The notes below the pieces were generated by a model that saw only the letters and a list, made by a program, of their open reading frames with translations, ran no database searches and had not been told where the DNA came from. From the NCBI GenBank assembly GCA_963668025.2, contig CAXXTH010000017.1, positions 384,001 through 448,000 on the forward strand: a DNA stretch of 64,000 nucleotides, read 5' to 3'. Shown piece by piece: positions 9,861-26,898 of this stretch. The translations under genes and the position numbers were made by a program. The stretch comes from Candidatus Hydrogenedentota bacterium (GTDB lineage Bacteria; Hydrogenedentota; Hydrogenedentia; Hydrogenedentales; SLHB01). Numbering within the stretch: the first letter of the stretch is position 1; every line of letters begins with the position of its first letter.

Positions 9861-9875
9861 ACATGGCCAAATGGC

Positions 9876-10742
9876 TTATTGGCCCGTTCCGGACATCATT
9901 TGCTCCGCATTGCGCAATATCTCGTTTTGGCTACCCGCCGCATCGGATTCATCGAAGGTGTCGTCCATGGCCGGAGGGGTGTTGCGCCGCTGGCGCAGCA
10001 ACCAGCGGATAGCTTTCGCGTCATCATAAGCGGAGTCCCAAGAGTTGTGTTCCGTCCCGGGATACTCCGTGTATTTGATTTTTCCGCCAGCGGCTTTAAT
10101 TGCATCCACCATGTGGCGCGATTCGTCCGGGGGCACTACGTTGTCCTCGGCCCCATGAAACGCCCAGATGGGGAGTTTCGCTAAGGCCGGCGCATCTTCG
10201 ACGCGTCCGCCGCCGCAGATGGGCATCAGCGCGGAGAACAATTCGGGATGGGCGGCTCCGTAATACCAGGTGGCGTATCCGCCCATCGAGATGCCAGTAA
10301 GCGCGATGCGTTCCCGGTCCACGTTATATTCGCCGATGGTTTGTTTGATGGATTTCTCGATAGGCTTGACACCTTTATCCCAGTACCCGGACGCCGGACA
10401 TTGCGGCATGGCCACCAGGCAGGGGAAACGGTCCGCATGCCGCCTTATGGCGCGGCCAATGCCTACCTCCGTTTGCAGCATGCCGTCCTTGCCCCGCTCG
10501 CCCATGCCATGTAGGAAGACCACGAGCGGCCAGGCCTTCCCGGGATCATAATCGCGCGGCACATAGAGCACATAATAGGAAGGTTTTCCATCAATGAGGG
10601 CTACTTTGTTAATAAAACCCGTTTGAATGCCTGCACGCATGGCGGCAAGTCCTTTCATGTTCATCGTGGCGCAACCGCTCGAAACTATCGCTACGGCGAG
10701 CAGAACAGCCACCGTCCACATATACGTCATCCGGCGTATCAT
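9876..10742 (-). CDS. Lipoprotein alpha/beta hydrolase (phospholipase/carboxylesterase or peptidase S9-like)
   Basis: SSGC lipobox, VFLHGMGERG, GISMGG nucleophile elbow, FHGAED, HNSW. Confidence 0.8.
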   Translation of the reverse strand: MIRRMTYMWTVAVLLAVAIVSSGCATMNMKGLAAMRAGIQTGFINKVALIDGKPSYYVLYVPRDYDPGKAWPLVVFLHGMGERGKDGMLQTEVGIGRAIRRHADRFPCLVAMPQCPASGYWDKGVKPIEKSIKQTIGEYNVDRERIALTGISMGGYATWYYGAAHPELFSALMPICGGGRVEDAPALAKLPIWAFHGAEDNVVPPDESRHMVDAIKAAGGKIKYTEYPGTEHNSWDSAYDDAKAIRWLLRQRRNTPPAMDDTFDESDAAGSQNEILRNAEQMMSGTGQ

Positions 10743-10795
10743 GCCAGTTTTCCTTTCCAGATTCGTGTGAATGGCTGAAGCCGGGCGCTAAGGAG

Positions 10796-10885
10796 AGCCT
10801 GCTCAAGCAGGCTAAGCGGCCAGGTGCTTTGAGTATCAACCTTCTCTTTCTCGGTTTTTACTATATCACCCTGCTCAAGCAAGCT
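10796..10885. repeat. Pair of REP-like palindromes
   Basis: AGCCTGCT-CA-AGCAGGCT (10796-10813), with a degenerate direct copy CCCTGCTCAAGCAAGCT (10869-10885). Confidence 0.55.
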
Positions 10886-10950
10886 AAAAGGACGGCGATT
10901 CTATAACCTTCCTTTCTCAATTTATAGACATTGCATCCTCTCATATTGCC

Positions 10951-12852
10951 CTACTGCATCCGGGCCTGCACGCTTGGGAAGCGGTTCATGTCCGTGTGGG
11001 GCAGAAACAGGGACGCCATGTATTCGTCCATGTAGCCCGGCGTGTTGCTCAGATCCATATAGGTCATTCGGCGGGCGATGTCAAGCTGGCGTTTCCGGTA
11101 CTCTTGCGACACGGCCACCATGTAGGAGCCCATGAGCGAGGCGTTGCCGATGTATTGGAAGCGTTCCCGGGGGATGTCGGGCGCGAGGCCGAGGATGATG
11201 GTCTTCTCGAGATCGAGGAAACGGCCAAAACCGCCCGCGATATAAATTCGCGCCAGATCCTCGAAGCCGATGCCAATGTGCTGAAGCATAAGCGAGCAGG
11301 CGGAATAGATGGCCCCCTTGGCGCGCACGATGTTTTCGATGTCCATCTCGCTGATGGCGATGGCTTCGCCGTTGGCGCTTTCTTCGGCGGAAGCGATGAT
11401 ATACCGCGCCCGCTTGCCGTCGTTCTTGATGTACGGCGACGGGCGGTCGCGGTCGAGTTTTCCCGCGGGATTGAGCCATCCCGTGATGAACAGGTTCGCC
11501 AGCAGCTCGATCATGCCCGAGCCGCAGATGCCTTGGGGCGCTCCTCCGCCAATGGTGTGATATCGCGCCGCGCCGGTATCGGGGTCCACATCGACGCTCT
11601 CGATGGCCCCGTGTGCTGCGCGCATGCCACACTGGATGCCGCCACCTTCAAAGGCGGGGCCTGCGGAACAAGCGCAGCTCATCAGAAAATCGCTATTGCC
11701 CACCACGAGCTCGCCGTTTGTGCCGATGTCGATAAACAGGCTGATCTCCTCGGATTCGGCGGCGAGGTCGGTGCATAGGAGGCCCGCCGTGATGTCGCCT
11801 CCTACGTAGCTGCCATTGTTGGGCGAGAAACAAATCCAGGAATCGGGATTGATCGGCAGGCCCACTTCGGCTGCGGTGACATAGGGCACTTCGAGCACCG
11901 TGGGAGTGTACGGATCTAGCCGGATGTACTCTGGATCAAGCCCCAGAAGCAAATGGTTCATGGTGGTGTTGCCCGAGATGACGGCATTGGTGATCTCCTC
12001 GGGTTCAACGCCGTTCTCTTCGGCGGTTTTTGTGATGAGCGTATTGATGGTGTCCAAGACACGCATACGCAATTCTTCGAGGCGTTCGGGCCGTTTCGCA
12101 TAGTTGATGCGGCTGATGATATCGAGGCCGCACACCACTTGGCCGTTATACGCCGTGTGGGTGGACATGATCCGCGCCACGGTAAGGTTGATGAGCTGCA
12201 CCGCCACGGTCGTGGTGCCCACGTCCACGGCAATGGCGTAATGGCGCGTGGTCTGGTTGCCCGGCTCGATGCGGATGACGTAGAGCTTGTCATCCTCGCG
12301 GACAAGCGTCACCGTGACCGCGCCATCCTTGGCGCGAAGGCTGCCCGCCAAGGTGCGTAGCACGCGCAAGGAATACACCACCTCGTGGCGGCCCCATTGA
12401 AGCTGGATCGCGCGCGTCAGCCGGTCTAGATCCGACAACCCGTCTTCCGGCTGGGGCTGCGGCACGAGAAAGAGCCACTTGACCGCGAGGGGATCATACT
12501 CCCATTCGCGGGGCAGCAATTCGCGGCGGATGAGGTAGGTCTCGTCGCCGTCGGCGAATTGGCCGCCTTCGCGGCCCGAGGGGCGGGGCACTTCAACCGT
12601 GATGTCCGATGTGAGCAAATGGGTCTTGCAAGCCAGCACATAGCCGTCGGCAATCATGGTGGGAGGAAGTGCGCCCCGGCCTTCCGACTCGATCTTGCCT
12701 TGTGTGATGCGGACGATGCATTTGCCGCATGTGCCCTTGCCGCCACAGGGCGACTCGACTTCGACGCCCGCCTTGCGGGCCACATCGAGCAGTTCCGCGC
12801 CAGGCAAGGCCTCCGCGATGGTTCCACTAGGCTCGAATGTCACCTTTGGCAT
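10951..12852 (-). CDS. acsV: Reductive activator of the corrinoid iron-sulfur protein (RACo/AcsV; 2Fe-2S + ASKHA ATPase)
   Basis: N-terminal CGGKGTCGKC...LAC ferredoxin, then DVGTTT, GNTTM, DIGTNGE, GPAFEG, GICGSG and AGGFG. Adjacent to acsC. Confidence 0.88.
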   Translation of the reverse strand: MPKVTFEPSGTIAEALPGAELLDVARKAGVEVESPCGGKGTCGKCIVRITQGKIESEGRGALPPTMIADGYVLACKTHLLTSDITVEVPRPSGREGGQFADGDETYLIRRELLPREWEYDPLAVKWLFLVPQPQPEDGLSDLDRLTRAIQLQWGRHEVVYSLRVLRTLAGSLRAKDGAVTVTLVREDDKLYVIRIEPGNQTTRHYAIAVDVGTTTVAVQLINLTVARIMSTHTAYNGQVVCGLDIISRINYAKRPERLEELRMRVLDTINTLITKTAEENGVEPEEITNAVISGNTTMNHLLLGLDPEYIRLDPYTPTVLEVPYVTAAEVGLPINPDSWICFSPNNGSYVGGDITAGLLCTDLAAESEEISLFIDIGTNGELVVGNSDFLMSCACSAGPAFEGGGIQCGMRAAHGAIESVDVDPDTGAARYHTIGGGAPQGICGSGMIELLANLFITGWLNPAGKLDRDRPSPYIKNDGKRARYIIASAEESANGEAIAISEMDIENIVRAKGAIYSACSLMLQHIGIGFEDLARIYIAGGFGRFLDLEKTIILGLAPDIPRERFQYIGNASLMGSYMVAVSQEYRKRQLDIARRMTYMDLSNTPGYMDEYMASLFLPHTDMNRFPSVQARMQ

Positions 12853-12884
12853 GGGGTGCTTCCTGGTTACAAAAGCAATCATTT

Positions 12885-13026
12885 TCTGGGGGACCCTTTC
12901 TTTCGCAGAAAGGGTCCCCCAGACCCCCCTCCCAAAGAACTCTCATTTGCTCCGCGAGCAACGCCTAATCAAAGGTTTTTGGAAAGGGGTTCGGGGAAAA
13001 CCTTTTTGCAAAAAGGTTTTCCCCGA
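12885..13026. repeat. Composite palindromic (BIME/REP-like) element inside the acs operon
   Basis: Hairpins TCTGGGGGACCCTTTCT-TTCGC-AGAAAGGGTCCCCCAGA (12885-12923) and TCGGGGAAAACCTTTTTGCAAAAAGGTTTTCCCCGA (12991-13026). Inner arms CCCCTCCCAAAGAAC and GTTTTTGGAAAGGGG. Confidence 0.75.
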
Positions 13027-13065
13027 TCTTCGTATCCACAATATACCCGCATTCATCTTCCGAGA

Positions 13066-14412
13066 CTACGCCGCGAGCACGTTTTTTATGAAACTCTCGA
13101 GATCGCCCGCTTCTTGCGGCCCTACGATGATTTCCCAGCCGGGCATGGCTTCCTCGAGTTCACCCGAGATCTGCGCCACGTAGCCGGGAATGACGATTTT
13201 GCGGTTCTTGGTTTTCGATTCGAGCTCGAATTCTTTGGCGAACTTGCCGATCTTGTCGCCGCCAAATTTGCCCGCCGCCCAGGATGTCAGCACGCTCATG
13301 CCCTCACATTCGGGTATCAGCAGCCAGGCCGAGAGGCCCGCGTTTTCGATTTCGCCCGACACGATGAAGTAGGTGAGCGAGAAGTTGGTGGTGACGAATG
13401 TCGGGCTCGTATCCGTAGGCTCGCCGATGGCATAAATCTTCGGCTCGACTTGGATGGGCTTCTGCGGGTCGGTATAAATATTTTGTCGCAGCGCCAGCAG
13501 CGACACCATCACCGCCGGGTCGAATTCGGGCAGAATCACAATGCCGCCGTACTTGGTGATCTCGAGGCCCGCCTCGACGGCGTCATCCATGGCGTTGCCT
13601 GTGTTCACGTAGGCGAGGGACGGGTAACCGAGCGTCTTGAGGCCCGTCTTGAGCGCGCCGCGCCGCATGATGATATGGTTTTGCACGTGTTCGCAAAGGC
13701 TGTCCGCTCTCAATTCAAGCAGGATATCGCGAAATTCCGCCGCCATGCAGGTTTCGACCATGGCCGCGAGGGCGTTGAAATTGTCCGCCGCCAACGCCAG
13801 CACGGCCCCATTCGCCTTAGCCGCTTCACACAGCGGGCCCACGGTTTCGGGCGTGGCTGATGCAAGGATGGGCTTGCGGCCCTTGAGCGTTTCAGACGCC
13901 GCCATAAGCAGGCTGGAATCGTCCGTGCGCACCACGATTGCGCCGCCCCACAAGGCCGCCACGCGCTCGATGCAGGCCAGATAGGCGTCGCGCGAGCCGC
14001 TCGAGCAGGCCACGCTGATGGCGTTGAGGCGGAGCTGTTCGCCGACGCGGTCCAGCGTGTAATCGGCCACGGCCTTCACGCGCGCTTCGAGTTCCGCAAT
14101 GTCCATGGCGTCATCCACGGCCACGCCGATGCCCGTCTCGTGGACAAAGGTTTTTTCATGGCGGTATGCAACCGTTTCTCCGCCCACGGAGAAGGCCCGC
14201 TCCCCCGCGCCGATAACGATGGTGCGGATGGGCGGTTCAGCAGCCGCACCGAGGATGGCCTTGGCTTCCTCGGACGCATAAGGGCATTCGGATAACTCGG
14301 CTTTCTTCGCCGCGAGCTTCATGGCGAAGGCCAGGCACGTGTTCGAGCCGCATTCCTTGCAATTCGTTTTCGGGAGCAGTTTTTGTATCTGCAAGCCAGT
14401 CAAGGGGGCCAT
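13066..14412 (-). CDS. acsC: Corrinoid iron-sulfur protein large subunit (CFeSP gamma)
   Basis: LPKTNCKECGSNTCLAFAM...CP Fe-S motif, RHEKTF, QNIYTDPQKP, TTNFSLTYF, SVLTSWAAGKF. Confidence 0.95.
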   Translation of the reverse strand: MAPLTGLQIQKLLPKTNCKECGSNTCLAFAMKLAAKKAELSECPYASEEAKAILGAAAEPPIRTIVIGAGERAFSVGGETVAYRHEKTFVHETGIGVAVDDAMDIAELEARVKAVADYTLDRVGEQLRLNAISVACSSGSRDAYLACIERVAALWGGAIVVRTDDSSLLMAASETLKGRKPILASATPETVGPLCEAAKANGAVLALAADNFNALAAMVETCMAAEFRDILLELRADSLCEHVQNHIIMRRGALKTGLKTLGYPSLAYVNTGNAMDDAVEAGLEITKYGGIVILPEFDPAVMVSLLALRQNIYTDPQKPIQVEPKIYAIGEPTDTSPTFVTTNFSLTYFIVSGEIENAGLSAWLLIPECEGMSVLTSWAAGKFGGDKIGKFAKEFELESKTKNRKIVIPGYVAQISGELEEAMPGWEIIVGPQEAGDLESFIKNVLAA

Positions 14413-14434
14413 GGTGCATGATCTCCTGGCGCCG

Positions 14435-17400
14435 TTATTCGGGCCGGTTGTTGGCGGACAGCTTCTGTACGTTGCGCCGCAGGATTTCCAATGATTCGGG
14501 ATGGTGCAAGATGAGCAAGTCCGCGCCGCTGGTGAGCAGCGTCATAGCGGTCTGCACTTCCCACAACACCGCGCGTTTCTCGATAGCGCCCCAATTCGGG
14601 AACGACGACTCGAGCGCATGGCCTTCCTTGGCCTTCCAGGCCTCCTGGCCCACATGCCCGAACAAGGGGAAGGCCAGCGACGCATCGCCGCCGAATCCTG
14701 TTAGGCGGATGCGTTCCATGACCGAGAAGGTGTATTCGAGGCCGTAACCCAGTGCGCCCACCATGGGGTCCATGATAATGCGGTCGCGAGGCAGGTCCAT
14801 GTTACCGAGCAGGATATTGAGCTGTTTGGCGAGGTTCACGTCAATCGGGCTCTGCGCCACGACGCAATGGCCATAGGCCAGCGCCGCGCCCGCTATGGTG
14901 CGGTAATTGTCGCCTTCCACCCAATTGAGCAGGAGGCGCTCGCCCGCGCAACCCGAGGCGACTTTTTTCATCACCTCATTGGTGGAATCGAAGTGGCTAT
15001 GGCCGGTGATGATGAGCGGCACATCCACGGCGGCGAGGATATCCTTCACCAGCGCCAGGGCGTCATCGGGACTTTTGCCACCCTTTTCGGGATGCGTGCC
15101 TTCGAGGCGCACCGAGATGATCTCCGCACCGTATTGCTCGACGGCGGCCTTCGCCATCTCGGCGGGCTTGGCCGCGAGATCGCCCCAGACGCCCCGCAGC
15201 ACCGGCGACAGCTTCGGGCTAACGGTGTCGAACACTTCAAGCGCAAAGACCGGCGAATTCGGAATGGAGCCCTCGAAATAGTGGAACGGCAGGCAATTCT
15301 GGCCGCCAAGGGCCACCGTGCGGCCACGGGTGCCGCCATCGGCGGATGTCGCGCCCAGCACCACGGCCTGAATGGTCTCGCCGGGCGATTCGCTGGGCAG
15401 GGCGAAAGCCGACACTTCAGCCAGCTTCTCCGCCGCATAACGCGTGGGAGCTTTCACCTCAACCACTTCGATCACCGGTTTCACCGGCGCTTCCGCGATT
15501 GGAGAGAGTGGGAGCGTGGCAGGCGCGGGAGCCATTGGCGGGGCGGCAATGGCCATGCCCAGTGGCGCAATGCCTTGTAACACCCCCGCAATCGCGCCTA
15601 CCACGTCCACAAGCAGTTCTCTTTTTAGGTCAGGAGAGGGCTTCACTTCAAGTTCTTCTTTCAGAGAGGCCTTGATATCCTCCATGATCGATTTCCGCAG
15701 TTCCGGCACTAGCTCCGTCTTGAGCGTGTCTTTCAACTGCGCGGATACTGTATCTGTAATCTGCTTAAATAATGCTGACAATAGATCGCCAGCTCCGCCG
15801 TTGCTGCCCGGAATGTGGGCTGCCGCAGGCGGCGCCGGGGCTGGCGGCGTGGAAAGCGCGGCGGCCGATTCGGCGGGCTTGGCCTTTGGTGCGATGGCAA
15901 CGAATTTAGGCTCCGGTTTCGGGGCCGCCTTGGGCGCTGAGGCCTCTGCCTTGGCTTCGGGCGAGGCCATTTCGTAGACATCTTCCTTGCCTACCCACAT
16001 CGTCGCCATGTCTTCCATCGTGACGGCGGGATGGCCTACTTTTTCCATGTAGGCTTTGATTTCCTGTGGATCCGTGGCGATGGTTTCATCGGCGATCTTG
16101 CCCCACAAATCCGGGAGTTCCAAGGCTTTCGCGCGCGACTTAAAATCGTCCGCCAGGATATCCTTGAGTTCCTTCGGCATCCAGACGACGCGCGCAAGCC
16201 CGCCATCGGCGTAGAGGAACTTCGGGCTTGAGAGGAAGGCCTTGCCCACGCCCATGAAGCCGGGCGTCTGGACGCCGCCGCCCACCATGCCCGCGAGCGA
16301 ACTGAACGGCATGCCGATGGGCGTGTCGCCAGGGAATTCGCGATTGACGATCATGACGCCGTTGCACTCGGGCACATAGGCCACGATGCTCTCGAAACAG
16401 CCGCACGAGGTCATGGGGTTGTCCATGATGCTGTAGGCCGTGAAGCTCTTGATGGCCTTGTGCGAGTTTTTATACACGTATTCGTTGACGCCTTCCCATA
16501 TGCCGCGCTTCGGGTCAAGGCAGCGCCCCTTCTCGACGGGCTGGTTCGGGCCGGTCTCATCGATCTCGTGGGCAGCCTTGCCATCGAGCCAGTTGTACGC
16601 GCCGCACAGGCCGAGGCGTTCGGGCGTGATGATGCATACATGATCTGGCGCGAATGATTGGCACAGCAGGCAGCTATAAAATGTCTCGACGGATTCGTCG
16701 GTCATGGCCGCCAAGCGGTGGTTGCGCTCGATATACACCTTACGCGCATGGGCGAGGCGTCGCTCGACCTCTTCTTTTTCCGTCACCAGCGTGACCTTGA
16801 CCTTGTCCACGATGGCCGGATATTCATCCAGGAATTTGGCATGTAGAATCTCGCCATAGTGTTTCAGACGCAAACCTTTAGCGAAACCGCCCTTGCTGAC
16901 GCGCGTCCACACGATGTCGCGCTGGCCCATATGCCAAAGGCCTTCCGCGCCGTTCAGCAGATGGTGAATCTGGCGTTCGAGAATAGGCTCGAAATCGGAC
17001 TGCATCTTGCGGCCCGCCACTTCGACCCAAATGGCCAGCGGCAGCGCCGTGCCCTCGGGCACCTGGTCGATATCCGGGCCGATAATCTCGATCTCGCCGT
17101 CATTGATATCGTCCAGTTCGACCATGGTGGCGAATTCGAAGGCGGGCGTGATGTTGCCGCCGAATTCGGCATGCACGTCGGCCTTCCGGATGCGTTCGCC
17201 CTCGAAGGCGGGGCCGTAGGGCACGGGCACAGGCACATTTGCCACTTTAATTTTGCAGCCGCGCACCTCGAGGGAGCGTTCGACGATTCTATCAAGGGGC
17301 ACATTGCTCACCACGTGTTCGTAGGTGCAGACGCCCGTGGGCAGGATCTCGGGGATATCCGTGTCGGCGATGGTCGGGAAACCGTAATTGATCGCGCCCG

Positions 17401-18181
17401 CCGCCGCTGCGTATTTCTCCTGGTCCACCTCGCCCAGCGCCATGACAAAGGCGAAGATGCGGTTCTTGTTGTAGCGCAGGTTTCGCTCGAAGTCGCCGGG
17501 CTGCACGCCGCCGAACGATAGAGCGGCGCGGCTGGCGAAACCGAGGGCATAGATGGCCGCCGACACATCATGGCCGAAGGGCACGAGGCGCGTCTCCCAG
17601 CCCAACTGCACGCCTTCGGCGGCGAGCTGTTCTGCGAAGGTCACGCCATCGACCGCACCCGCCATGAAGACATACAGGTTCTTCTCCTGCAACTGCCGGG
17701 CGATCTTCACCGCCGTGGCGTTGTCCGGCGCGGCTCCCACCACGGCCGCGAAACCGGGCGCGGTGCCATCCACGAATTCGATGCCGCGTTCGCGCATGAT
17801 CACGTCGTTGGCCGCACCGAGCCAGATCCCATCGACGGGATTCGGGCCGATCAGATATTTGCACGCTTCGATGGCCTCGAAGGCAAACAGCGTAGCCACG
17901 CCCGCGTCGAGTGCGTCGCCCAGATAGGGCAGCCATACATTCTCGGATGGCGGCTCGGGCAGCAGGTTGTGGCAGTCTTGCATCACCTCGACGAGGTCGC
18001 TTAGTTTCTGCACTTTCCGGCCCGTAAACGAATAAATGACCGGAAGATAATAGGCCGTGCCGGGGAATCCCACGGGATGCTCGGCCCCCTTGGCTTCGAT
18101 AGTCCGCGCAAGCATGGCGTTGGCCCGCTCGACGGCTTCCTTGGCTCCTACGATGGCGTCGGTGCAAATGGCCTTAGACAT
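14435..18181 (-). CDS. acsB: Acetyl-CoA synthase (AcsB) fused through a long linker to the CFeSP small subunit (AcsD)
   Basis: First ~735 aa are AcsB: FPGTAYYLP, A-cluster ligands SCLLCQSFAP, HVC, GLCG, TSCGC. C-terminal ~310 aa are AcsD: GATSADGGTR, VAQSPIDVNLAKQLNI, MDP..GALGYGLEYTFSVMERIRL, EAWKAKE, GADLLILHHP. One continuous ORF. Confidence 0.9.
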   Translation of the reverse strand: MSKAICTDAIVGAKEAVERANAMLARTIEAKGAEHPVGFPGTAYYLPVIYSFTGRKVQKLSDLVEVMQDCHNLLPEPPSENVWLPYLGDALDAGVATLFAFEAIEACKYLIGPNPVDGIWLGAANDVIMRERGIEFVDGTAPGFAAVVGAAPDNATAVKIARQLQEKNLYVFMAGAVDGVTFAEQLAAEGVQLGWETRLVPFGHDVSAAIYALGFASRAALSFGGVQPGDFERNLRYNKNRIFAFVMALGEVDQEKYAAAAGAINYGFPTIADTDIPEILPTGVCTYEHVVSNVPLDRIVERSLEVRGCKIKVANVPVPVPYGPAFEGERIRKADVHAEFGGNITPAFEFATMVELDDINDGEIEIIGPDIDQVPEGTALPLAIWVEVAGRKMQSDFEPILERQIHHLLNGAEGLWHMGQRDIVWTRVSKGGFAKGLRLKHYGEILHAKFLDEYPAIVDKVKVTLVTEKEEVERRLAHARKVYIERNHRLAAMTDESVETFYSCLLCQSFAPDHVCIITPERLGLCGAYNWLDGKAAHEIDETGPNQPVEKGRCLDPKRGIWEGVNEYVYKNSHKAIKSFTAYSIMDNPMTSCGCFESIVAYVPECNGVMIVNREFPGDTPIGMPFSSLAGMVGGGVQTPGFMGVGKAFLSSPKFLYADGGLARVVWMPKELKDILADDFKSRAKALELPDLWGKIADETIATDPQEIKAYMEKVGHPAVTMEDMATMWVGKEDVYEMASPEAKAEASAPKAAPKPEPKFVAIAPKAKPAESAAALSTPPAPAPPAAAHIPGSNGGAGDLLSALFKQITDTVSAQLKDTLKTELVPELRKSIMEDIKASLKEELEVKPSPDLKRELLVDVVGAIAGVLQGIAPLGMAIAAPPMAPAPATLPLSPIAEAPVKPVIEVVEVKAPTRYAAEKLAEVSAFALPSESPGETIQAVVLGATSADGGTRGRTVALGGQNCLPFHYFEGSIPNSPVFALEVFDTVSPKLSPVLRGVWGDLAAKPAEMAKAAVEQYGAEIISVRLEGTHPEKGGKSPDDALALVKDILAAVDVPLIITGHSHFDSTNEVMKKVASGCAGERLLLNWVEGDNYRTIAGAALAYGHCVVAQSPIDVNLAKQLNILLGNMDLPRDRIIMDPMVGALGYGLEYTFSVMERIRLTGFGGDASLAFPLFGHVGQEAWKAKEGHALESSFPNWGAIEKRAVLWEVQTAMTLLTSGADLLILHHPESLEILRRNVQKLSANNRPE

Positions 18182-20129
18182 TGAGCGCTCTCCGGTCTTT
18201 CATGTCGAACAGTTTACGTTCCGCTTTCTTGTTGATCCCCAGGGCGTCGCGCTTCTTCTCGATATGGGCGCAGATCACCTCGATAGCCTTATGGACATCG
18301 GACTCGTAATGGAACTTGGCCCCCACTTCGGCCTCGAGGCCTTGCGTGAGGTATTCGGTGACATTCTTCGAGCCCATGGTGTGGAAAGGATGGCCCAGCA
18401 CCACATCCACGCCCGACGCCACGAAGTAATGGCCGATAGCCACGGCCTTTTCGCTCATCCACTCGGGGGCCGCGCCGATGGCGGGCACCTCGGAGAGGTC
18501 GTTGCCGAGTCCGCCTTCTTCAACGATGTACGTAGCGGCCATGAGAATACGGGAGTTGTCCACGCACGAACCCATATGCAGCACCGGCGGAATGCCCACC
18601 GCCTCGCACACTTCGCGCAGGCTGTCGCCCGCCATTTGAAGAGCCGTCTCGGGCGTGAGCAGCCCCGCTTTGCCGCAGGCCACCGCCGCGCAACCCGTCT
18701 GCAAGACGAGCACATTGCGCTTGATCAGCTCCTTGGCCAACGTGAGGATGTATTCATCCATCTTGCCGTGGCGCGCATTGGTGCAGCCCACGATGCCGCA
18801 CACGCCGCGAATGCGGCCCGTGATGATGGCGTCATTGAGCGGGCGGAAGCTCTTGCGGAATGTGCCGCCTAGGATGTTGAAAATCGTCTCCGTGCTGAAT
18901 CCAGCCACGAGCGGACTGCGGTGATCGGGGATGGCCACCTTTTTCGGATCCCGGTTCGGGAAATTATCAATGGCTTTCCAGAGAATCGCCTTGGCGGACG
19001 CCAGGCCGTCCTCGGGCTCGTAGTTCACCGGCTCCGCGCCGATATTCATGGCGATGGGGCTGGTGGTCAGAATCTTGGTGTGGTAGCACTTCGCCACTTC
19101 CGGCAGCGAGGCCATGCAGCACTGCACATCGGTGATCATGAGTTCGACGGCGCCCGTGATGATGGCGAGTTCCTGCTGAAGGAAATTACCCGCCACGGAT
19201 ACGCCGTGGCGCATGAGCACTTCGTTTGCCGTGCAGCAGATGCCCGCGAGGTTGATCCCCTCCGCGCCCACTTTCTTCGCGGCGGCCACCATCTCGGGGT
19301 CGTTCGCCGCCACCACCAGCATCTCCGTGAGCGCCGGTTCATGGCCATGCACGAGGACATTCACCATTTTTTCTTCGAGGACGCCCAAATTCGCCTTGGC
19401 CTTAACGGGCTTTGGCGTGCCGAACAGGATGTCGCTCACGGCAGTGGCGATCATTGAACCGCCCCAGCCATCGGCAAGGGACGTTTTGAGTGCGCCTCGA
19501 ATGATGTTTTTATAGTCATGGTCCACGCCGATATGGGTGCGGTGCAGGCATTCCACTACGGAGGCGTCCACGCCGCCCGGTGCGATTTTCATGTGGTCCC
19601 ACACGCTTTGGCGTGGCTTGGGCGCCAGTTCGAGGGTTTTCAGTTTGCCTTCCTGCAAGCGGAATTCATCCAGAAACAGCTCGGCCAGATTGCGCACGAC
19701 ATCAAGGGTGTCCACACCCGCTTCCTCGACGCCCCATGCCCGGGCGGCGGAGCGCAGCTTGCGCTCGTCGCTGATCTTGTAATCGCCGCCGTTGCCTTCG
19801 CCGACGCGCTTAAGCAACAGCACCAAGTGGCGGCCATGGTCCGAATGGGCCGCCGTGCCAGCCGCCACTTCACGGAGCAGATTGCGCGCCACGACGGTGT
19901 CCAGGGTCGCGCCGCATACGCCCGGCGTGAAGTCAGATATCTTGCAAGGCCCCATATGGCAAATGCGGCAGCACGTGCCTTCCGAGCCAAAGGTGCAGGG
20001 CTTACCTTGTTCATCCGCCCTCGAGAAAGCATCGTTCTCGACGCCGTCCGCATCGGCTTTCCTGAGCATTTCGATGCTTGCCTGATCAACGGCCAAGTCT
20101 TCGATGCGCCGCTCACGATCATCCGCCAT
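18174..20129 (-). CDS. cooS: Anaerobic Ni-Fe carbon monoxide dehydrogenase catalytic subunit
   Basis: CTFGSEGTCCRICHMGPC..VCG (D/B clusters), HSDHGRH, and C-cluster ligands HGHEP, ICCT, DVQC, VGC, TGC, GSCVDN. Overlaps the acsB start. Confidence 0.95.
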   Translation of the reverse strand: MADDRERRIEDLAVDQASIEMLRKADADGVENDAFSRADEQGKPCTFGSEGTCCRICHMGPCKISDFTPGVCGATLDTVVARNLLREVAAGTAAHSDHGRHLVLLLKRVGEGNGGDYKISDERKLRSAARAWGVEEAGVDTLDVVRNLAELFLDEFRLQEGKLKTLELAPKPRQSVWDHMKIAPGGVDASVVECLHRTHIGVDHDYKNIIRGALKTSLADGWGGSMIATAVSDILFGTPKPVKAKANLGVLEEKMVNVLVHGHEPALTEMLVVAANDPEMVAAAKKVGAEGINLAGICCTANEVLMRHGVSVAGNFLQQELAIITGAVELMITDVQCCMASLPEVAKCYHTKILTTSPIAMNIGAEPVNYEPEDGLASAKAILWKAIDNFPNRDPKKVAIPDHRSPLVAGFSTETIFNILGGTFRKSFRPLNDAIITGRIRGVCGIVGCTNARHGKMDEYILTLAKELIKRNVLVLQTGCAAVACGKAGLLTPETALQMAGDSLREVCEAVGIPPVLHMGSCVDNSRILMAATYIVEEGGLGNDLSEVPAIGAAPEWMSEKAVAIGHYFVASGVDVVLGHPFHTMGSKNVTEYLTQGLEAEVGAKFHYESDVHKAIEVICAHIEKKRDALGINKKAERKLFDMKDRRALNV

Positions 20130-20161
20130 TATCTATCCTCTCCAGTTGGCTCGCGTGCAAT

Positions 20162-20512
20162 CTACTGATTGCCCTTAGGAGCAAAGGTCTTTTCTTCGGT
20201 CGTCCATTGCATAAACTCCACGACCGTTCCCGCGTCGTATATAAAAGCGGCCACCACGTTCTCCATGGCCTGGAACGGGCCAAGAATCACGTTCTTGCCT
20301 GAGATTTCCCGTTCCAAATCATCCGTCGTGAAGGCCAAGTGCGGCTGCATGCGCAACGGGCCCGTGACGGGCGAATCGGATTCATAGCGCAAATACTCGA
20401 TTCGATACGGATGATTGCCCGGCTCCGTCACGAACACCTTCGTCTCCGCCACGTAAATCTCGCCGTCGTGTTTTTCATCCGTCGGCAGTCCCAAATGATG
20501 AAACTCTCGCAT
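20162..20512 (-). CDS. Small VOC/glyoxalase-fold protein
   Basis: Likely start MREFHHLG at 20512 (GGAG upstream). FHHLG, IEY, PHLAF..DDL and VVEFM fit the vicinal-oxygen-chelate pattern. Confidence 0.6.
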   Translation of the reverse strand: MREFHHLGLPTDEKHDGEIYVAETKVFVTEPGNHPYRIEYLRYESDSPVTGPLRMQPHLAFTTDDLEREISGKNVILGPFQAMENVVAAFIYDAGTVVEFMQWTTEEKTFAPKGNQ

Positions 20513-20616
20513 GGCTTTCTCTCCCTTAGGTACCATGGCCGTCCCAGCCATGCGCATGGGCGGGACGCCCATGCTACGGTATTCAAGATCATGAGCCGCT
20601 CTAGCAAAAAATGGCG

Positions 20617-21378
20617 TCAAGCCGCCATGTATCCGAGCATGTGTTCCGCCGCTTGGTATGCGGCGCTATTCTTGGATAGCTCGAACACAGGCGCGCCGGT
20701 GGCGTCTTGCCTGGCCACCTCGGGGTCTTCCGGCAGGCCGCCAAGCACCTTCACGGGAGTGCCCGCGAACAGCTCTTCGGCGCGGGCCAGGCAGGCCTCA
20801 TCTCGAAGCCGGTTAATCACGACACCCATGTGACCCGCCTTCATTTCCATCTCGAGGGCGAGGTCATATAGCCGCCGCGCCGTCAAAATGCCGCGCGCGG
20901 AAGGGTCGGCCACGAATACCAGCCAATCCGTTTGCTGCACGGTGCGGCGGCTCAGATTTTCAAGTCCTGCTTCGTTATCTATCACCACGGCGGGGTACTG
21001 GCCAGATAATTTCGATAGCACGCCCCGCAACACATTATTCGCGTAACAGTAACAGCCGGGGCCTTCCGAGCGGCCCATGGCGATCAGGTCGAACCCTTGC
21101 GCCTCGACCAGCGACTCCTGGATCTTCATGTCCAGCAAGTCCTGTTTGCTGACACCCCCCGCAATGCCCGCTTGCGCGATGGCCTTGGCCTCCTCGCGCA
21201 CGCCGCCCACGGTGTTCGACACCTGCACGCCCAGCAGCGCATCGAGGCACATGTTCGGATCGGCGTCCACGGCCAATACGGGGCCTTTGCCCCATTCGCC
21301 CAATAGGCGCACCGCTAACGCCGCCAGCGTGGTTTTCCCTACGCCGCCCTTGCCTGTCACCGCCAGCGTCCAGCTCAT
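20617..21378 (-). CDS. cooC: CooC/AcsF-type nickel-insertion ATPase
   Basis: GKGGVGKT, DADP, GPGCYC metal motif, DNEAGLENLSR. Confidence 0.9.
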   Translation of the reverse strand: MSWTLAVTGKGGVGKTTLAALAVRLLGEWGKGPVLAVDADPNMCLDALLGVQVSNTVGGVREEAKAIAQAGIAGGVSKQDLLDMKIQESLVEAQGFDLIAMGRSEGPGCYCYANNVLRGVLSKLSGQYPAVVIDNEAGLENLSRRTVQQTDWLVFVADPSARGILTARRLYDLALEMEMKAGHMGVVINRLRDEACLARAEELFAGTPVKVLGGLPEDPEVARQDATGAPVFELSKNSAAYQAAEHMLGYMAA

Positions 21379-22289
21379 CCCAAGATCTTCTTCATGGTTT
21401 CAGCGACGGCTTTAATATGCGCGGGCGAAGAGCCACAGCAACCGCCAATGAATTTCGCACCAGCCTTCAACAGCACCGGAACGGCATGCTCATATACATC
21501 AGGCGTGGCCTTGAACACTGTCTTGCCGTTTTCATCCACCATGGGTTTGCCCGCGTTGCCTTTCACCCAGATGGGCACATCATCGCCGCATTGGGCGAAC
21601 AACTCGGCGATATGGGCGAAAGTCTCGATGCCCGCCCCGCAGTTCGCGCCCACGAAGCTCGCGCCCATGGACTTCGCCAGTTCATAGGTCTGGAGGATGC
21701 TGACGCCCATCATGGTGAATTCATTGTTTTCACCCGAATCGAAGGTCATCGACACGCCCACCGGGAGTTCCGGCGCGCCGCGCAGGCAGCCGCGCAATGC
21801 CGCCGCCACTTCCACCAGATCGCTCTGCGTCTCGACGACAATCGCATCAGCCCCGCCATCGGCGAAAGCCTTGGCTTGTTCCGCGGCGGACGCCTCGACC
21901 TCTTCCTCGGACACTTCGCCCATCATGACGATCTTGCCGCAGGGACCGAGCGAGCCGAATACATAGGCTTTGCCCAATGCCGCTTTCTTCGAGATCTCCG
22001 CACCGGCTTTGGTCAGTTCATACGCCCGCTCCGCGATGCCGTGCTTGGCGAGTACGATGTGGTTGCTGTTGAAGGTATTGGTCAGGATGACCTGCGAGCC
22101 CGCGTCCACATAGCCCTTGGCCACTTGGAATACCTTGTCCGGCTCGTCCACATTCCACGTATCACACATCTGGCCCGGTTTCGCGCCGAGTTTCGCCATT
22201 TCGGTGCCCCAAGCGCCGTCCGTGCATAACGGGGGGAGGTCTTTGAAGTTTTCTTTGGTCAGTTTCTTCGTCGCATCAAACTGCATCAT
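21375..22289 (-). CDS. Stand-alone homocysteine S-methyltransferase domain (MetH N-terminal/BHMT family)
   Basis: DGAWGT, ILTNTF, GSLGP, ET, GANCG, NAGKP and IGGCCG (Zn ligands). No pterin or B12 domain follows. Confidence 0.85.
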   Translation of the reverse strand: MMQFDATKKLTKENFKDLPPLCTDGAWGTEMAKLGAKPGQMCDTWNVDEPDKVFQVAKGYVDAGSQVILTNTFNSNHIVLAKHGIAERAYELTKAGAEISKKAALGKAYVFGSLGPCGKIVMMGEVSEEEVEASAAEQAKAFADGGADAIVVETQSDLVEVAAALRGCLRGAPELPVGVSMTFDSGENNEFTMMGVSILQTYELAKSMGASFVGANCGAGIETFAHIAELFAQCGDDVPIWVKGNAGKPMVDENGKTVFKATPDVYEHAVPVLLKAGAKFIGGCCGSSPAHIKAVAETMKKILG

Positions 22290-22318
22290 ATGCCTCGCTT
22301 TCTTATGGGCTCCCGCCG

Positions 22319-23386
22319 TTAAAATCCGTACTTGCTCTTCAGCAGTTGGCTCGTCGCGCCGAGTTTCTGGAACACCTGCTCCGCGTCCGCCACTTCCATC
22401 GAGCCCGTGCCGCACGACGGCGTGATAAAGGCCTGTTCCAGAATCACTTGCTTGTCGATGCCCGCCTTCTGCGCTAGATTGTCTGCAAGCGTCTCAAACC
22501 TCGCCGCCAAGCCTTCCGGACTCTGTTCACGGATAGCAGGACTTGTCGGTACTACGCCCCAGGCCAGCGCGTTATGGTTGTCCATAAGATGGCGCTTCAT
22601 AGGCTCGGGATACAGGGCCACGGTTTCACCATAGTCAAATGCATCGAAGTTCAGGATATCGACACCCGCGTCCACGAGGATGGACCACTCGGTGTTGCCG
22701 CAGCAGTGGATGCCCGCGAATGCGCCTTCCAGGTGGACCGCCTCGATCACTTCGTTCAACCGCGCCACCACGTCATCGCGTTGCACGGACACGTAGGTCG
22801 AACTGCCGAAGGCCGACAAGATGGGCTCGTCAATGAAGCAGATGATATTTTCCGCATAGGGTTTGAACTTCTGGATCTGCCAGCGACATTTCATGGCCAG
22901 GGCCTTCACCACGACATCCAGGAACTCTTCGTTGTAATAAATGGCGCGCTTGTTCTCGTCCACGATGGTCAGTGCAAAACTGATGGGGCCGGTGGTTTGG
23001 CATTTGATGTACGGCAGCTTGGCCCCCAGCGATTTCACTTTCGCCTCGAGGGCGGGAATGCCCGCGCTGAACGCCGGGCTGATGGCCCCCGCCGAGCAGT
23101 CGTTCTCTTCTTCCGCCAGCATGTAGCCTTCATAAAACGCCGCCAGCTCTTCCGAGTAATCGCCCGAGGTGTCGATGTACATGCGCGACTTCGCCTCGTC
23201 GATTACGACGCGCGGGACGCCCTCGGAATACTGGATCTCCATCTGCTCGTGCAAGCCCAGCTTGGGCAATTGCGGCCAGATGGGGGCTGTGGGGATGCTG
23301 CTGAAGATCAGCTCGATGGCCTTCGCGGGGTCCGCATAAGGCAGCGAACCAATCGCCGTGGCTGTGCATTTCGCCTTGATGTCCAT
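22319..23386 (-). CDS. Short core-MetE / MesB-like methylcobamide:homocysteine methyltransferase
   Basis: 355 aa single barrel. TAIGSLP, WPQLP, K.QTTGP, FIDEP, GIHCCG, AWGVVPT, ITPSCG. Lacks the folate-binding N-half of full-length MetE. Confidence 0.72.
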   Translation of the reverse strand: MDIKAKCTATAIGSLPYADPAKAIELIFSSIPTAPIWPQLPKLGLHEQMEIQYSEGVPRVVIDEAKSRMYIDTSGDYSEELAAFYEGYMLAEEENDCSAGAISPAFSAGIPALEAKVKSLGAKLPYIKCQTTGPISFALTIVDENKRAIYYNEEFLDVVVKALAMKCRWQIQKFKPYAENIICFIDEPILSAFGSSTYVSVQRDDVVARLNEVIEAVHLEGAFAGIHCCGNTEWSILVDAGVDILNFDAFDYGETVALYPEPMKRHLMDNHNALAWGVVPTSPAIREQSPEGLAARFETLADNLAQKAGIDKQVILEQAFITPSCGTGSMEVADAEQVFQKLGATSQLLKSKYGF

Positions 23387-23455
23387 AGTTTGCTCTCCTT
23401 ACTGCTTTGCGTTTCAGCAGGGCGTCTATTATCCGAAATAGGCCCCGGGGCCCCA

Positions 23456-24259
23456 TTATACCAGCTTGGCTTCACTTCCAATGCGCGCTTTAGCGCTCTC
23501 CCACAACTCCTCAAATACGCCTCTTAGCCGTTCATCGGCGATATCCACCAGCGGTGCGCTGTCGCGGTCCGCCCGGCGAATCGTTTCGTCATACGGCAGC
23601 CAGCCCAGCACATCCTCGCCCGCGCACGCTTGCGTGATGAACGCATGGTCTTCCGGCGACGCGATTTTATTGGCGATGACCGCCACGCGCTGGACGCCGA
23701 TCTCCGCCGCCATGCGCCGCACCGCCGCTGCTGTTTCGACCGAACGCGCGCCGGGCTCCACCACCACCACCATGAGGTCCACGCCCTTGGCCGTCGCCCG
23801 GCCCAAATGCTCCAGGCCCGCTTCGAAATCAATAATGACGCAATCGTCTTTATACAGAATCACGTCCGTCATCAACGCCCGCAGCATCACGCTCTCGGGG
23901 CACGCGCACCCCGAGCCGCCGCTCTCGACCGCTCCCAACACCAGCAGATGAATGCCCCGGAATGAAGCCGATTCCTGTTCGGCGATATCCGACACATGGG
24001 GATTGAGTTTGAAAATTTGGCCGTATTGCTTGACCTTCGCGCCCGTGCGCTCCTCGATAAGGGCGCGCCGCTCCGAGAGGGGGATGATCGCGTTACGGCC
24101 TTCCAGAGGCATGCCGAGGGCCTCCGCCAGGTTCGCATCCGGATCAGCGTCCACCGCCAGCACGCGCAACCCTTCGGCAGCCGCCAAATGGGCGAACATC
24201 GCCGCGATAGTGGACTTGCCCACGCCGCCTTTGCCGCTGACCGCGATCTTGAATCCCAT
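23456..24259 (-). CDS. cooC: Second CooC-type nickel-insertion ATPase
   Basis: SGKGGVGKST, DADPDANL, GSGCACPE, DFEAGLEHLGR. Confidence 0.9.
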   Translation of the reverse strand: MGFKIAVSGKGGVGKSTIAAMFAHLAAAEGLRVLAVDADPDANLAEALGMPLEGRNAIIPLSERRALIEERTGAKVKQYGQIFKLNPHVSDIAEQESASFRGIHLLVLGAVESGGSGCACPESVMLRALMTDVILYKDDCVIIDFEAGLEHLGRATAKGVDLMVVVVEPGARSVETAAAVRRMAAEIGVQRVAVIANKIASPEDHAFITQACAGEDVLGWLPYDETIRRADRDSAPLVDIADERLRGVFEELWESAKARIGSEAKLV

Positions 24260-24293
24260 GAAGGCCCTTTCTGCTGGGCGGGATTTATAAACT

Positions 24294-24313
24294 CATCACA
24301 TCACATCACATCA
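24294..24313. repeat. (CATCA)4 perfect pentanucleotide tandem repeat in the acs operon leader
   Basis: CATCACATCACATCACATCA, 35-54 bp upstream of the cooC start codon. Confidence 0.8.
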
Positions 24314-24436
24314 ACCCAGCCTCAAAATGGTATCCCAATCATGGCGCGGCGTCAAACATATTAATTTTTGATTCCGTATTACTGGCTCGCCCTGATTTCT
24401 AGGGCTCTATCCACTGAGATCGTTGTGAGAATCAGA

Positions 24437-24609
24437 TTTTCACCACGGGGGCACGGGGAACACAGGGGAGGTGTTCTGTAGTTATTTTTCCATTGAAGCG
24501 ATGTCTCGGATATATTTAGAGGCATGAATAAAGCATAACTATTGAGCGTATTATTTTAAGCGACTGCATTTTAAGCCGCCCCGTGTTCCCCGTGCCCCCG
24601 TGGTGAAAA
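24437..24609. mobile_element. MITE-like element with perfect 27-bp terminal inverted repeats
   Basis: TTTTCACCACGGGGGCACGGGGAACAC (24437-24463) is the exact reverse complement of 24583-24609. AT-rich interior, no target-site duplication seen. Confidence 0.6.
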
Positions 24610-24715
24610 AACCTTGTTATACATCCCGTTTACGTGCGGCTTGCCCTCGCGCGGTTCATCGGGTAATGTGATGGGGCCATGTTAAAGAATAACGGCTCAT
24701 CAAAGGAGAACATCA

Positions 24716-25567: not shown

Positions 25568-25585
25568 TCGTTGAATGTGAGGAGT

Positions 25586-25625
25586 AAAAAGGCTCAACGG
25601 CTAATCATCCGTTGAGCCTTTTTTT
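25586..25625. terminator. Bidirectional rho-independent terminator
   Basis: A5-GGCTCAACGG-loop-CCGTTGAGCC-T7 between convergent genes. Confidence 0.85.
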
Positions 25626-25630
25626 GCGTA

Positions 25631-26680: not shown

Positions 26681-26898
26681 CGCTAATCCCTTATGTACCG
26701 GTACACCTGTATATTTTGTCTTATGGTTCTCCGCCATTGTATGCATTTAGTCTTGACCATCCAACATGCCAAGGAGCTGGGATTTGATGAGCACGACGAC
26801 AGCGCAGCTTGCGCGGGTGTTCAAGCCTCTTCCCCTCCTTCGCCAACCTTTGAGACCGGCCAATTGATGTCTCTGCCGCCCGAAAACGCATCTATCGG

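Follow-up and report, generated by a model that had tools for sequence, protein, structure and literature searches.

From our analysis of the window (the whole 64,000-nt stretch of Candidatus Hydrogenedentota DNA), AcsB and AcsD were found to be encoded, with a linker between them, by one ORF within an acs gene cluster [Table 1]. The genes are ordered cooC - metE-like - (Hcy-MT) - cooC - cooS - acsBD - acsC - RACo; the first 8 nt of the fusion coincide with the last 8 nt of cooS, the acsC start lies 22 nt past the fusion stop behind a GGAGA motif, and this overlap and short spacing, together with the Shine-Dalgarno-like motifs at the junctions, are operon signals. No Rfam family was found in 9000-26000, promoter and terminator scans over the window gave no signal above shuffles, and the GC content of the cluster (0.59-0.62) showed no clear difference from its flanks. 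In the genome (G000, 93.75% complete), PF03599 matches two proteins, AcsC and the fusion, and the two are likewise its matches in three related genomes (G024, G009, and G075). The fusion is the only AcsD of the window genome, in which, at this completeness, no free acsD was found.

Table 1. Features of the acs cluster and of the fusion ORF (window coordinates)
Feature	Coordinates	Strand	Remarks
cooC/AcsF-like P-loop ATPase (second)	23456..24259	minus	head of cluster
MetE-like 355-aa protein	22319..23386	minus	'methionine synthase family', MesB-type candidate
Stand-alone homocysteine S-methyltransferase domain protein	21375..22415	minus	PF02574
cooC-type P-loop maturation ATPase	20617..21378	minus	
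cooS/acsA, bacterial-type Ni-CODH	18174..20129	minus	TIGR01702 632 bits, cut-off 478
acsB::acsD fusion ORF (P0001), 1248 aa	14435..18181	minus	ATG at 18181; TAA stop 14435-14437
AcsB part, residues 1-725	16007..18181	minus	A1 (CODH_A_N), A2 (CdhC), A3 (ACS_CODH_B_C)
Linker, residues 726-935, 210 aa	15377..16006	minus	matches no known family
Proline-poor amphipathic module in linker, residues 798-872	15566..15790	minus	sole conserved linker part
AcsD part, residues 936-1248	14438..15376	minus	complete CFeSP small-subunit TIM barrel
acsC, CFeSP large subunit	13066..14412	minus	FeS + CdhD domains; NF003195 508 bits, cut-off 306
RACo/AcsV-type corrinoid reductive activase	10951..12882	minus	

The sequence-only reading had seen a complete AcsB with all A-cluster Cys motifs and a complete AcsD in a single 1248-aa ORF, whose strand (minus) it left unstated, and Pfam, NCBIfam, and structure alignments agree with it. 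The Pfam matches are CODH_A_N (residues 23-110), CdhC (318-472), ACS_CODH_B_C (483-725), and CdhD (942-1234), and NF040764 (CODH_ACS_al_bet) covers residues 11-725 at 1051 bits (cut-off 800; profile positions 2-704 of 705). Residues 7-725 align end to end with residues 22-727 of Carboxydothermus ACS (9fr0_A, E 2e-226), so that the A1 domain, which in ACS is N-terminal and binds CODH, is present both by its Pfam match and in the alignment with the solved ACS. The motifs C-x2-C-x8-C-x9-C and C-G-C fall inside the latter; C504, C507, C516, C526, C593, G594, and C595 are invariant in an alignment of 40 fused homologues, and we take them to be the A-cluster ligands (C504/C507/C516/C526 for the [4Fe-4S] and bridging site, C593-G594-C595 for the Cys-Gly-Cys Ni site). 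The AcsD part scores 352 bits in the delta-subunit subfamily NF003376 (cut-off 280; residues 936-1242, positions 13-312 of 313) and falls below the cut-off in the acetogen-specific NF040759 (252 vs 430 bits) and in TIGR00381 (245 vs 253); residues 936-1245 align with residues 13-321 of 323 of the Moorella CFeSP small subunit (4djd_D, E 4e-89). M1 and S2 are invariant among the 40 fused homologues, which shows the start codon to be correct. The AcsB::AcsD fusion is thus real and complete, and is encoded as one polypeptide.

The linker, taken in the earlier reading for a stop-free stretch of about 200 aa, was confirmed as such: its frame has no stop, whereas the two remaining forward frames contain 10 and 6. 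It is rich in Ala (20%), Pro (13%), and Glu (9%) with a net charge of -6 (computed over residues 726-940), its codon periodicity is less marked than in the domains (GC3 0.64 vs 0.78-0.79), its DNA holds no tandem repeats, and searched alone it gives no Pfam or NCBIfam match at E<=10. Its length in 40 homologues ranges between 120 and 260 aa, always in frame, and the only segment conserved among the 40 sequences is the proline-poor module of residues 798-872, which has a high helical hydrophobic moment and, in the subclade of the window, carries an insert of about 29 aa that makes it longer. Aligned by hhalign, this module reached a probability of 0.1% with the AcsD barrel and 0.4% with AcsB. 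A Met between the helical module and the AcsD core occurs in 12 of the 40 sequences only and in no shared column, and no conserved internal start ahead of the AcsD core was found among them. We also considered homology of the linker to the N-terminal region of archaeal CdhD, which is unsupported: as no CdhD family is matched at E<=10, the likeness is one seen by eye, and the long NF003375 alignment, which begins at residue 833, is not independent evidence for it.

The junction was then checked in sequencing runs and in related genomes. One Logan contig of 3979 nt from each of runs X1 and X2 matches 14300-17342 throughout, without a difference or a gap, and contigs of run X3 match 14694-16695 without differences or any listed indel; run X4, from another study, has no depth at 15372-15773, and none of the 19 runs listed is an RNA run. 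The sequence-only reading had proposed a check on raw reads; these are assembled contigs rather than reads, and since X1-X3 may be the window's own source they are not independent support. The genes of the closest relatives, G024 (75% identity), G009 (72%), and G075 (72%), are fused as well, in a single frame each.

A search for both halves in one polypeptide found CdhC, ACS_CODH_B_C, and CdhD together in one protein of 1116-1298 aa in all of the best 120 homologues listed, and it is this conservation that supports the junction independently. Both halves share one ORF in 32 of 80 loci from species genomes and in 77 of 80 metagenome loci (the nearest metagenomic relatives of P0203), and in a sample of 301 genomes from another phylum 8 of the 10 AcsB-bearing genomes are fused; all fused loci shown are MAG records. 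In two AcsB trees the fused rows (33 and 20) form one clade each, with SH-like support of 100 and SH-aLRT of 100, respectively, and the main fused clade carries the labels of about 13 phyla. The predicted fused architecture is hence conserved in one clade spread over many phyla of uncultured anaerobes and, being so abundant, is no peculiarity of the window genome, so that one outcome named in the earlier reading as refuting it, an already common architecture, applies. As for its being already annotated, a few JGI names give both subunits, but NCBI names read 'subunit alpha/beta' or 'beta'. At least two further fusions, P0246 with a different linker and P0260 with a very short one (∼55 aa), sit outside the main clade, so that a minimum of three changes is needed, and the AU test rejects a single clade for all fusions (p 5e-40). 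This repeated origin suggests that the linkage itself has been selected.

In the sister group (Aminicenantes, Desulfaltia), as seen in L042, a cooC-like gene (P0512) stands between acsB and an acsD of 325 aa. Within the fused clade, the linker frame is broken in some genes (G114, L027, and L047); acsC of G114 is also split in two pieces, which points to sequencing errors or decay there. Some 'free' AcsD gene calls with N-terminal extensions (P0203 and P0216) nest inside the fused family. These had been considered as ancestors of the linker, which we rejected because the fusion is found in 77 of the 80 metagenome loci most closely related to P0203, and they are thus secondary breaks or gene-call splits. 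Should the frame breaks and free AcsD calls be real rather than sequencing errors, the covalent link would be dispensable.

The sequence-only reading had counted AcsE among the partners of the corrinoid protein, and no AcsE was found in the window genome or in five other fused-type genomes. PF00809 matches in the window genome only FolP (TIGR01496, 318 bits) and a MetH-like ORF of 1214 aa, and in each of 4 fused-type genomes searched with an AcsE protein query (NF005719 270 bits, cut-off 259) the MetH module was the sole match. An AcsE-like Pterin_bind match occurs in 0 of 6 fused-type genomes vs 5 of 5 split-type relatives; as the window genome is 93.75% complete, its lack of AcsE is not proven. 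Of the 22 fused loci whose upstream sequence extends for 4 kb or more, 21 contain a MetE-like gene and none an AcsE-like gene, and of 135 genomes of the phylum the 5 that belong to the fused clade, and no others, have the MetE-like gene, although these loci include kin and horizontally moved cassettes, so that the counts are not independent samples and overstate the support for co-occurrence. In all 6 fused loci examined, the fusion has cooS, acsC, and RACo as neighbours. The 355-aa MetE-like protein has no Pfam match at E<=1 and a weak NCBIfam match to the methionine synthase PRK00957 (E 6.5e-4), its atlas clusters bear the name 'methionine synthase family protein' with a score of 0.97, and all of 5 sequences compared share H227, C228, C229, and C325. 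The fused type is, by its predicted gene content, a cassette without the AcsE folate methyltransferase and with a conserved MetE-like gene (a MesB-type candidate) instead, and without AcsE its methyl partner is probably a different one.

Taken together, we consider it fairly probable that one AcsB-linker-AcsD polypeptide in the acs cluster tethers the corrinoid iron-sulfur protein (CFeSP, or CoFeSP) to CODH/ACS with a partner other than AcsE. AcsC would bind the AcsD domain to form the CFeSP, which would thereby be tied permanently to the CODH/ACS (AcsA2-AcsB2) core at 1:1 stoichiometry, and the Ala/Pro/Glu-rich arm would act as a flexible swinging tether. In 2-oxoacid dehydrogenases, Ala/Pro-rich swinging arms of the E2 lipoyl domains let the cofactor domain visit several active sites; the linker would likewise be an Ala/Pro-rich flexible spacer, with proteins and cofactor unrelated and the likeness an analogy. 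The partner in methyl exchange would probably be the MetE-like (MesB-type) protein and/or the Hcy-methyltransferase of the same cassette and not a folate methyltransferase, and the flux could run either way, towards acetyl-CoA synthesis or cleavage. The fusion would thus likely serve to hold the corrinoid protein on CODH/ACS, and methyl channelling analogous to that of archaeal ACDS is plausible. A bolder version appears doubtful: the fusion would mark a separate, horizontally mobile CODH/ACS module free of folate methyltransferase, in which the tethered corrinoid would pass methyl groups directly between the Ni A-cluster and zinc thiol methyltransferases (MesB-type, Hcy-MT) and so link acetyl-CoA to methionine/methyl-thiol metabolism without methyl-THF, while the tether helix would build an ACDS-like complex.

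Conceivably, the fusion is genetic only and serves co-expression, 1:1 stoichiometry, or co-translational assembly, with the linker proteolysed or kinetically idle and the enzyme working like one with free CFeSP. The low-complexity, familyless linker of 120-260 aa, its weaker codon bias, and the frame-broken or separately called versions inside the fused clade are all consistent with this, and the fusion protein may be cleaved post-translationally. Nevertheless, the frame has survived many indels over hundreds of independent assemblies, fusion has originated more than once, the linker holds a conserved helical module, and no internal Met is conserved, and we therefore regard a purely genetic role as unlikely. 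The linker module could instead be an assembly element that oligomerises or docks CODH/ACS-CFeSP units into a higher-order complex functionally like ACDS. Its standing as the sole conserved part of the linker, poor in proline and of high helical hydrophobic moment, fits such a role, as does the oligomerisation of archaeal CoFeSP via the CdhD N-terminal region given in the available part of the preprint 10.64898/2026.07.07.736967; but the absence of any CdhD or other family match to the linker, the negligible hhalign probabilities, and the different or much shorter linkers of the independent fusions make it a rather remote prospect. An assembly or sequencing artefact, in which neighbouring genes were run together by a lost stop or a frameshift, is practically inconceivable even though a GC-rich, low-complexity linker is an indel-prone setting (as in the three broken genes above), because the Logan contigs, possibly the window's own source, agree base for base over the junction, fused homologous loci come from many studies at the counts given, and acsB and acsD of the sister group are not adjacent.

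CODH/ACS with CoFeSP is the textbook case of organometallic methyl transfer, and corrinoid shuttling is under active structural study. The widespread natural form, with the shuttle tied covalently to the synthase, would supply a stable complex ready for cryo-EM and kinetics, and it offers a natural experiment on substrate channelling as well as a bacterial counterpart of the archaeal ACDS architecture. As the fused form travels with the MetE-like gene and without AcsE, many claims of a 'complete Wood-Ljungdahl pathway' from MAGs (of Planctomycetota, Verrucomicrobiota, Acidobacteriota, Hydrogenedentota, and others) may refer to a module that differs from acetogens in methyl source and in physiological direction. 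Pipelines that name the fusion just 'subunit alpha/beta' may moreover count AcsD as missing. The earlier reading did not recall the fusion as described, and our literature search likewise found no published description, Adam, Borrel & Gribaldo 2018 (PNAS) aside; none was found by passage searches in PMC13737181, 10.1101/765248, 10.1101/2025.09.14.676152, PMC3584212, PMC12743542, PMC6344411, and PMC2702500. In essence, the fusion is a widespread, unstudied variant of a classic carbon-fixation enzyme.

The window system resembles the bacterial CODH/ACS with free CoFeSP of Moorella thermoacetica, Carboxydothermus hydrogenoformans, and Clostridium autoethanogenum (1oao, 9fr0, 4djd, 2ycl, and 9fzy) in its full three-domain ACS, full small subunit, bacterial-type CooS, and adjoining AcsC and RACo. 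It differs from them in that AcsB and AcsD are one polypeptide with a linker of about 210 aa between, and in the MetE-like and Hcy-methyltransferase genes of its cluster. AcsC, with which a separate AcsD pairs, lies directly downstream of the fusion; unlike in the canonical acsA-B-C-D-E set, AcsD is not separate, and no acsE was found in the cluster or in the genome (93.75% complete). With archaeal ACDS (CdhABCDE) it would share the functional idea of a CoFeSP kept permanently on ACS and CODH. There, the CdhD N-terminal region is proposed as a (coiled-coil) scaffold, with association via disordered regions (10.64898/2026.07.07.736967, available part); in the window system, by contrast, the association would be covalent, the ACS includes an A1 domain, which archaeal CdhC lacks, the CODH is of CooS type by the TIGR01702 score in Table 1 and by only 100 bits in the cdhA model (cut-off 781), and the linker has no detected homology to any CdhD family.

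Dehalococcoides mccartyi, with an incomplete Wood-Ljungdahl pathway and core-MetE/MesB (Deobald 2020, PMC7005905; Price 2021, PMC7857596; available parts), is similar in combining an AcsE-less ACS/CoFeSP with a MetE-like enzyme that needs no folate and is predicted to draw methyl groups from CoFeSP, whereas the window genome also encodes CooS, FTHFS, MTHFR, and a MetH-like ORF. The 355-aa protein is a candidate MesB/core-MetE, a type marked by Zn-binding His/Cys/Cys residues and characterised as DET0516/cbdbA481. Natural fusions of Wood-Ljungdahl subunits exist in several combinations, such as MTHFR/AcsD in Desulfurivibrio alkaliphilus (PMC5016858, available part) and, among our homologues, CooS-AcsB (P0251 and P0253) and Pyr_redox_2-AcsB (P0248); fused Ni-CODHs are reportedly tabulated in Supplementary Table 1 of PMC6344411. 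Unlike each of these three combinations, the window fusion links the A-cluster subunit with a CFeSP subunit.

The acsBD ORF of the window encodes AcsB (residues 1-725), a linker and AcsD (residues 936-1248) in one frame; the sequence-only reading had described this arrangement without stating the strand, and it is correct according to Pfam, NCBIfam, and solved-structure alignments. Against the NCBIfam equivalog for bacterial alpha/beta (AcsB), the first 725 residues reached 1051 bits (cut-off 800), and this part aligned end to end with the solved Carboxydothermus ACS (E 2e-226). Residues 936-1242 scored 352 bits on the delta-subunit subfamily model (NCBIfam, cut-off 280), and the AcsD part could be aligned to the small subunit of Moorella CFeSP over residues 13-321 of its 323 (E 4e-89). 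The fusion retains the A-cluster cysteine motifs, which are invariant across 40 fused homologues. M1 and S2 are invariant as well, which confirms the start codon. Other AcsB architectures were also encountered, namely CooS (Prismane)-AcsB fusions of 1141-1375 aa (P0251, P0253), a Pyr_redox_2-AcsB fusion of 1024 aa (P0248), and LAGLIDADG inteins in three AcsB proteins (P0244, P0258, and P0273; 50% representatives). The inteins occupy two sites, both in A-cluster cysteine motifs, one directly preceding the first cysteine of 'CQSFAP' and a second inside 'SCGCFE'.

Location of the acsBD fusion, its domains, and features of the window and of related loci
Feature	Location	Strand	Remark
acsBD ORF	14435-18181	minus	1248 residues
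CODH_A_N	residues 23-110 of fusion		Pfam
CdhC	residues 318-472 of fusion		Pfam
ACS_CODH_B_C	residues 483-725 of fusion		Pfam
Amphipathic linker module	residues 798-872 of fusion
CdhD	residues 942-1234 of fusion		Pfam
152-aa TTG ORF	20162-20620	minus	no family
Fused-type upstream cassette	21375-23386	minus
581-aa ORF	8115-9860	plus	no Pfam or NCBIfam match
FGE-sulfatase family gene	25631-26746	minus
DUF3786 gene, Victivallales	L012:12878-13477	plus	after RACo
Broken acsBD, genome G114	L091 (G114:C125:19000-23400)		two ORFs
Sister-group acs locus, Aminicenantes	L042:8100-9014	plus

The named best matches of the window's PriA come almost entirely from Candidatus Hydrogenedentota. On the minus strand, the genes run in the order cooC-like, 355-aa MetE-like, Hcy S-methyltransferase, cooC, cooS, acsBD, acsC, and RACo. 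The fusion and the end of cooS share 8 nt, acsC starts 22 nt downstream of the fusion, and both junctions carry Shine-Dalgarno-like motifs. The same neighbors, cooC and cooS upstream and acsC and RACo downstream, flank the fusion in all six fused loci examined from other phyla. In the window's genome (6.15 Mb, 93.75% complete), a CdhD-family match was obtained for AcsC and for the fusion but for nothing else, so it has no free acsD; these two are likewise the sole matches in three fused-type relatives. The Victivallales fused cluster has a DUF3786 gene after RACo. Between cooC and cooS the window has about 490 nt, vs. about 40 nt in the Victivallales locus, and this gap holds a TTG-initiated ORF, not found in four fused-type relatives, which may be spurious or a lineage-specific insert. 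Elsewhere in the window, the clusters nearest to the 581-aa ORF in the Atlas carry sulfatase domains (score 0.98; PF00884 in 37-52% of their proteins), and an FGE-sulfatase family gene is also present.

AcsB was present in 13 of the 135 genomes of the window's phylum. The single-frame fusion was found in four of these, including the window's (72-100% identity), and separate genes, merely 48-60% identical, in eight. In the remaining genome (G114), a break in the linker splits a fused-clade acsBD, leaving two ORFs that overlap by 187 nt, and acsC is likewise in two pieces; either the assembly is error-prone or the cluster is decaying. Among 301 genomes sampled from the phylum to which a Victivallales genome belongs, 8 of 10 AcsB-bearing genomes were fused, both counts being lower bounds. 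An equal sample from the phylum of a Syntrophaceae genome gave 209 genomes with a match, and among the best 150 of these only the seed genome had a frame longer than 1100 aa. When 101 AcsB-domain rows were placed in a FastTree phylogeny, 33 fused ones formed a single clade (support 100), recovered by IQ-TREE on 52 rows (SH-aLRT 100); its record titles span Planctomycetota, Lentisphaerota, Verrucomicrobiota, Bacteroidota, Spirochaetota, Thermodesulfobacteriota, Acidobacteriota, Armatimonadota, and others, some of these MAG labels possibly being wrong. Two fused proteins fall outside it: P0246 groups with Chloroflexota sequences, and P0260 is distant, with a linker of about 55 aa. Constraining all fused rows together cost 403 log-likelihood units (IQ-TREE, AU p 5e-40), in a test where the fused group was named after the tree had been seen and P0260 is a long branch. 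This pattern fits one old fusion spread by whole-cassette transfer, with independent fusion having occurred at least once or twice more. Direct adjacency of acsB and acsD in the sister group (Aminicenantes and Desulfaltia loci) was considered and rejected because a cooC-like gene lies between acsB and the short acsD; the Aminicenantes locus reads cooS - acsB - cooC-like - acsD (325 aa) - acsC, with a MetE-like gene upstream. The fusion is common in public protein, genome, and metagenome data, hidden under the name 'subunit alpha/beta'. No published description was found in the literature searched, Adam et al. (2018) being outside that search.

The fused type also differs in its methyltransferases. 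Pterin_bind matches in the window's genome were limited to FolP and a MetH-like long ORF, and none of six fused-type genomes (the window's and five others) had an AcsE-like match. All five split-type relatives had an extra match (43-86 bits, frames of 271-378 aa), beside the acs genes in four; one is a bona fide AcsE (folate methyltransferase; NF005719, 270 bits, cut-off 259), and with this protein as query only the MetH module was found in four of four fused-type genomes. Of the 135 genomes of the phylum, the five in the fused clade, and no others, have the gene for the 355-aa MetE-like protein. Where a fused locus extends far enough upstream, this gene was present in 21 of 22 cases and an AcsE-like gene in 0 of 22; split loci had the MetE-like gene in 4/33, each of them belonging to the sister group, and an AcsE-like one in 9/33. 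These counts are not independent because kin share cassettes. In the window and in loci L012, L024, L052, and L054, the cassette carries the conserved MetE-like gene, a MesB-type candidate; an Hcy S-methyltransferase standing alone often accompanies it, and no AcsE was found in the cluster. The 355-aa protein resembles 'methionine synthase family' clusters in the Atlas and keeps the invariant His/Cys residues. In Price et al., 2021 (PMC7857596), MesB-type core methionine synthases are predicted to take methyl groups from CoFeSP, and the Dehalococcoides enzyme was characterized by Deobald et al., 2020 (PMC7005905). FTHFS and MTHFR are both encoded in the window's genome.

The best-supported explanation, and probably the right one, is that CFeSP is permanently tethered to the CODH/ACS core. 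AcsC would pair with the AcsD domain of the fusion, and a flexible arm would hold the cobalt-methyl carrier on the core while leaving it free to visit RACo as well as the methyltransferases encoded upstream. The main rival, that the fusion secures only co-expression and stoichiometry with the link cut or unimportant, appears rather unlikely; the broken versions inside the fused clade favor it, if real. Within the 210-residue linker, which is Ala/Pro/Glu-rich, a proline-poor amphipathic module, usually about 40 aa long, stands between a Pro-dense stretch and a second Ala/Pro stretch; the module is the sole conserved piece of the linker across the 40 fused homologues. That this helix module acts as a scaffold, which may add to either the tether or the purely genetic reading, seems quite unlikely.

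An artefactual joining of acsB and acsD is practically excluded. Verification of the junction in reads and related genomes had been proposed. Logan contigs of three runs, possibly from the window's own sample, agree with the window across the junction with zero differences and zero indels. Beside the fused members of the phylum, the 120 best matches in a set of 5.8 billion clustered proteins are all single chains of 1116-1298 aa that contain CdhC, ACS_CODH_B_C, and CdhD. Both halves lay in one stop-free ORF in 32 of the 80 best loci of species-representative genomes and in 77 of 80 metagenome loci retrieved with an AcsD-side query. The linker of the window has no in-frame stop, vs. 10 and 6 in the other forward frames, and among the 40 aligned fused members its length varies from 120 to 260 aa with the frame never lost. 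Such conservation is a stronger argument against an artefact than the contigs.

As for the ancestry of the linker, a free AcsD with an N-terminal extension bearing the helix motif was considered and rejected, since the nearest relatives are nearly all fused and the N-extended 'free' AcsD proteins are therefore secondary breaks or gene-call splits. The linker had no family match in Pfam or NCBIfam even at E<=10, and neither that search nor hhalign of the module gave sequence support for a likeness to CdhD. Passages of a 2026 preprint on archaeal CoFeSP (10.64898/2026.07.07.736967), which make no mention of an AcsB-AcsD fusion, describe its oligomerization via a helix of the CdhD N-terminal region, scaffolding the ACDS complex. 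It is this archaeal region that the linker module resembles, by eye only.
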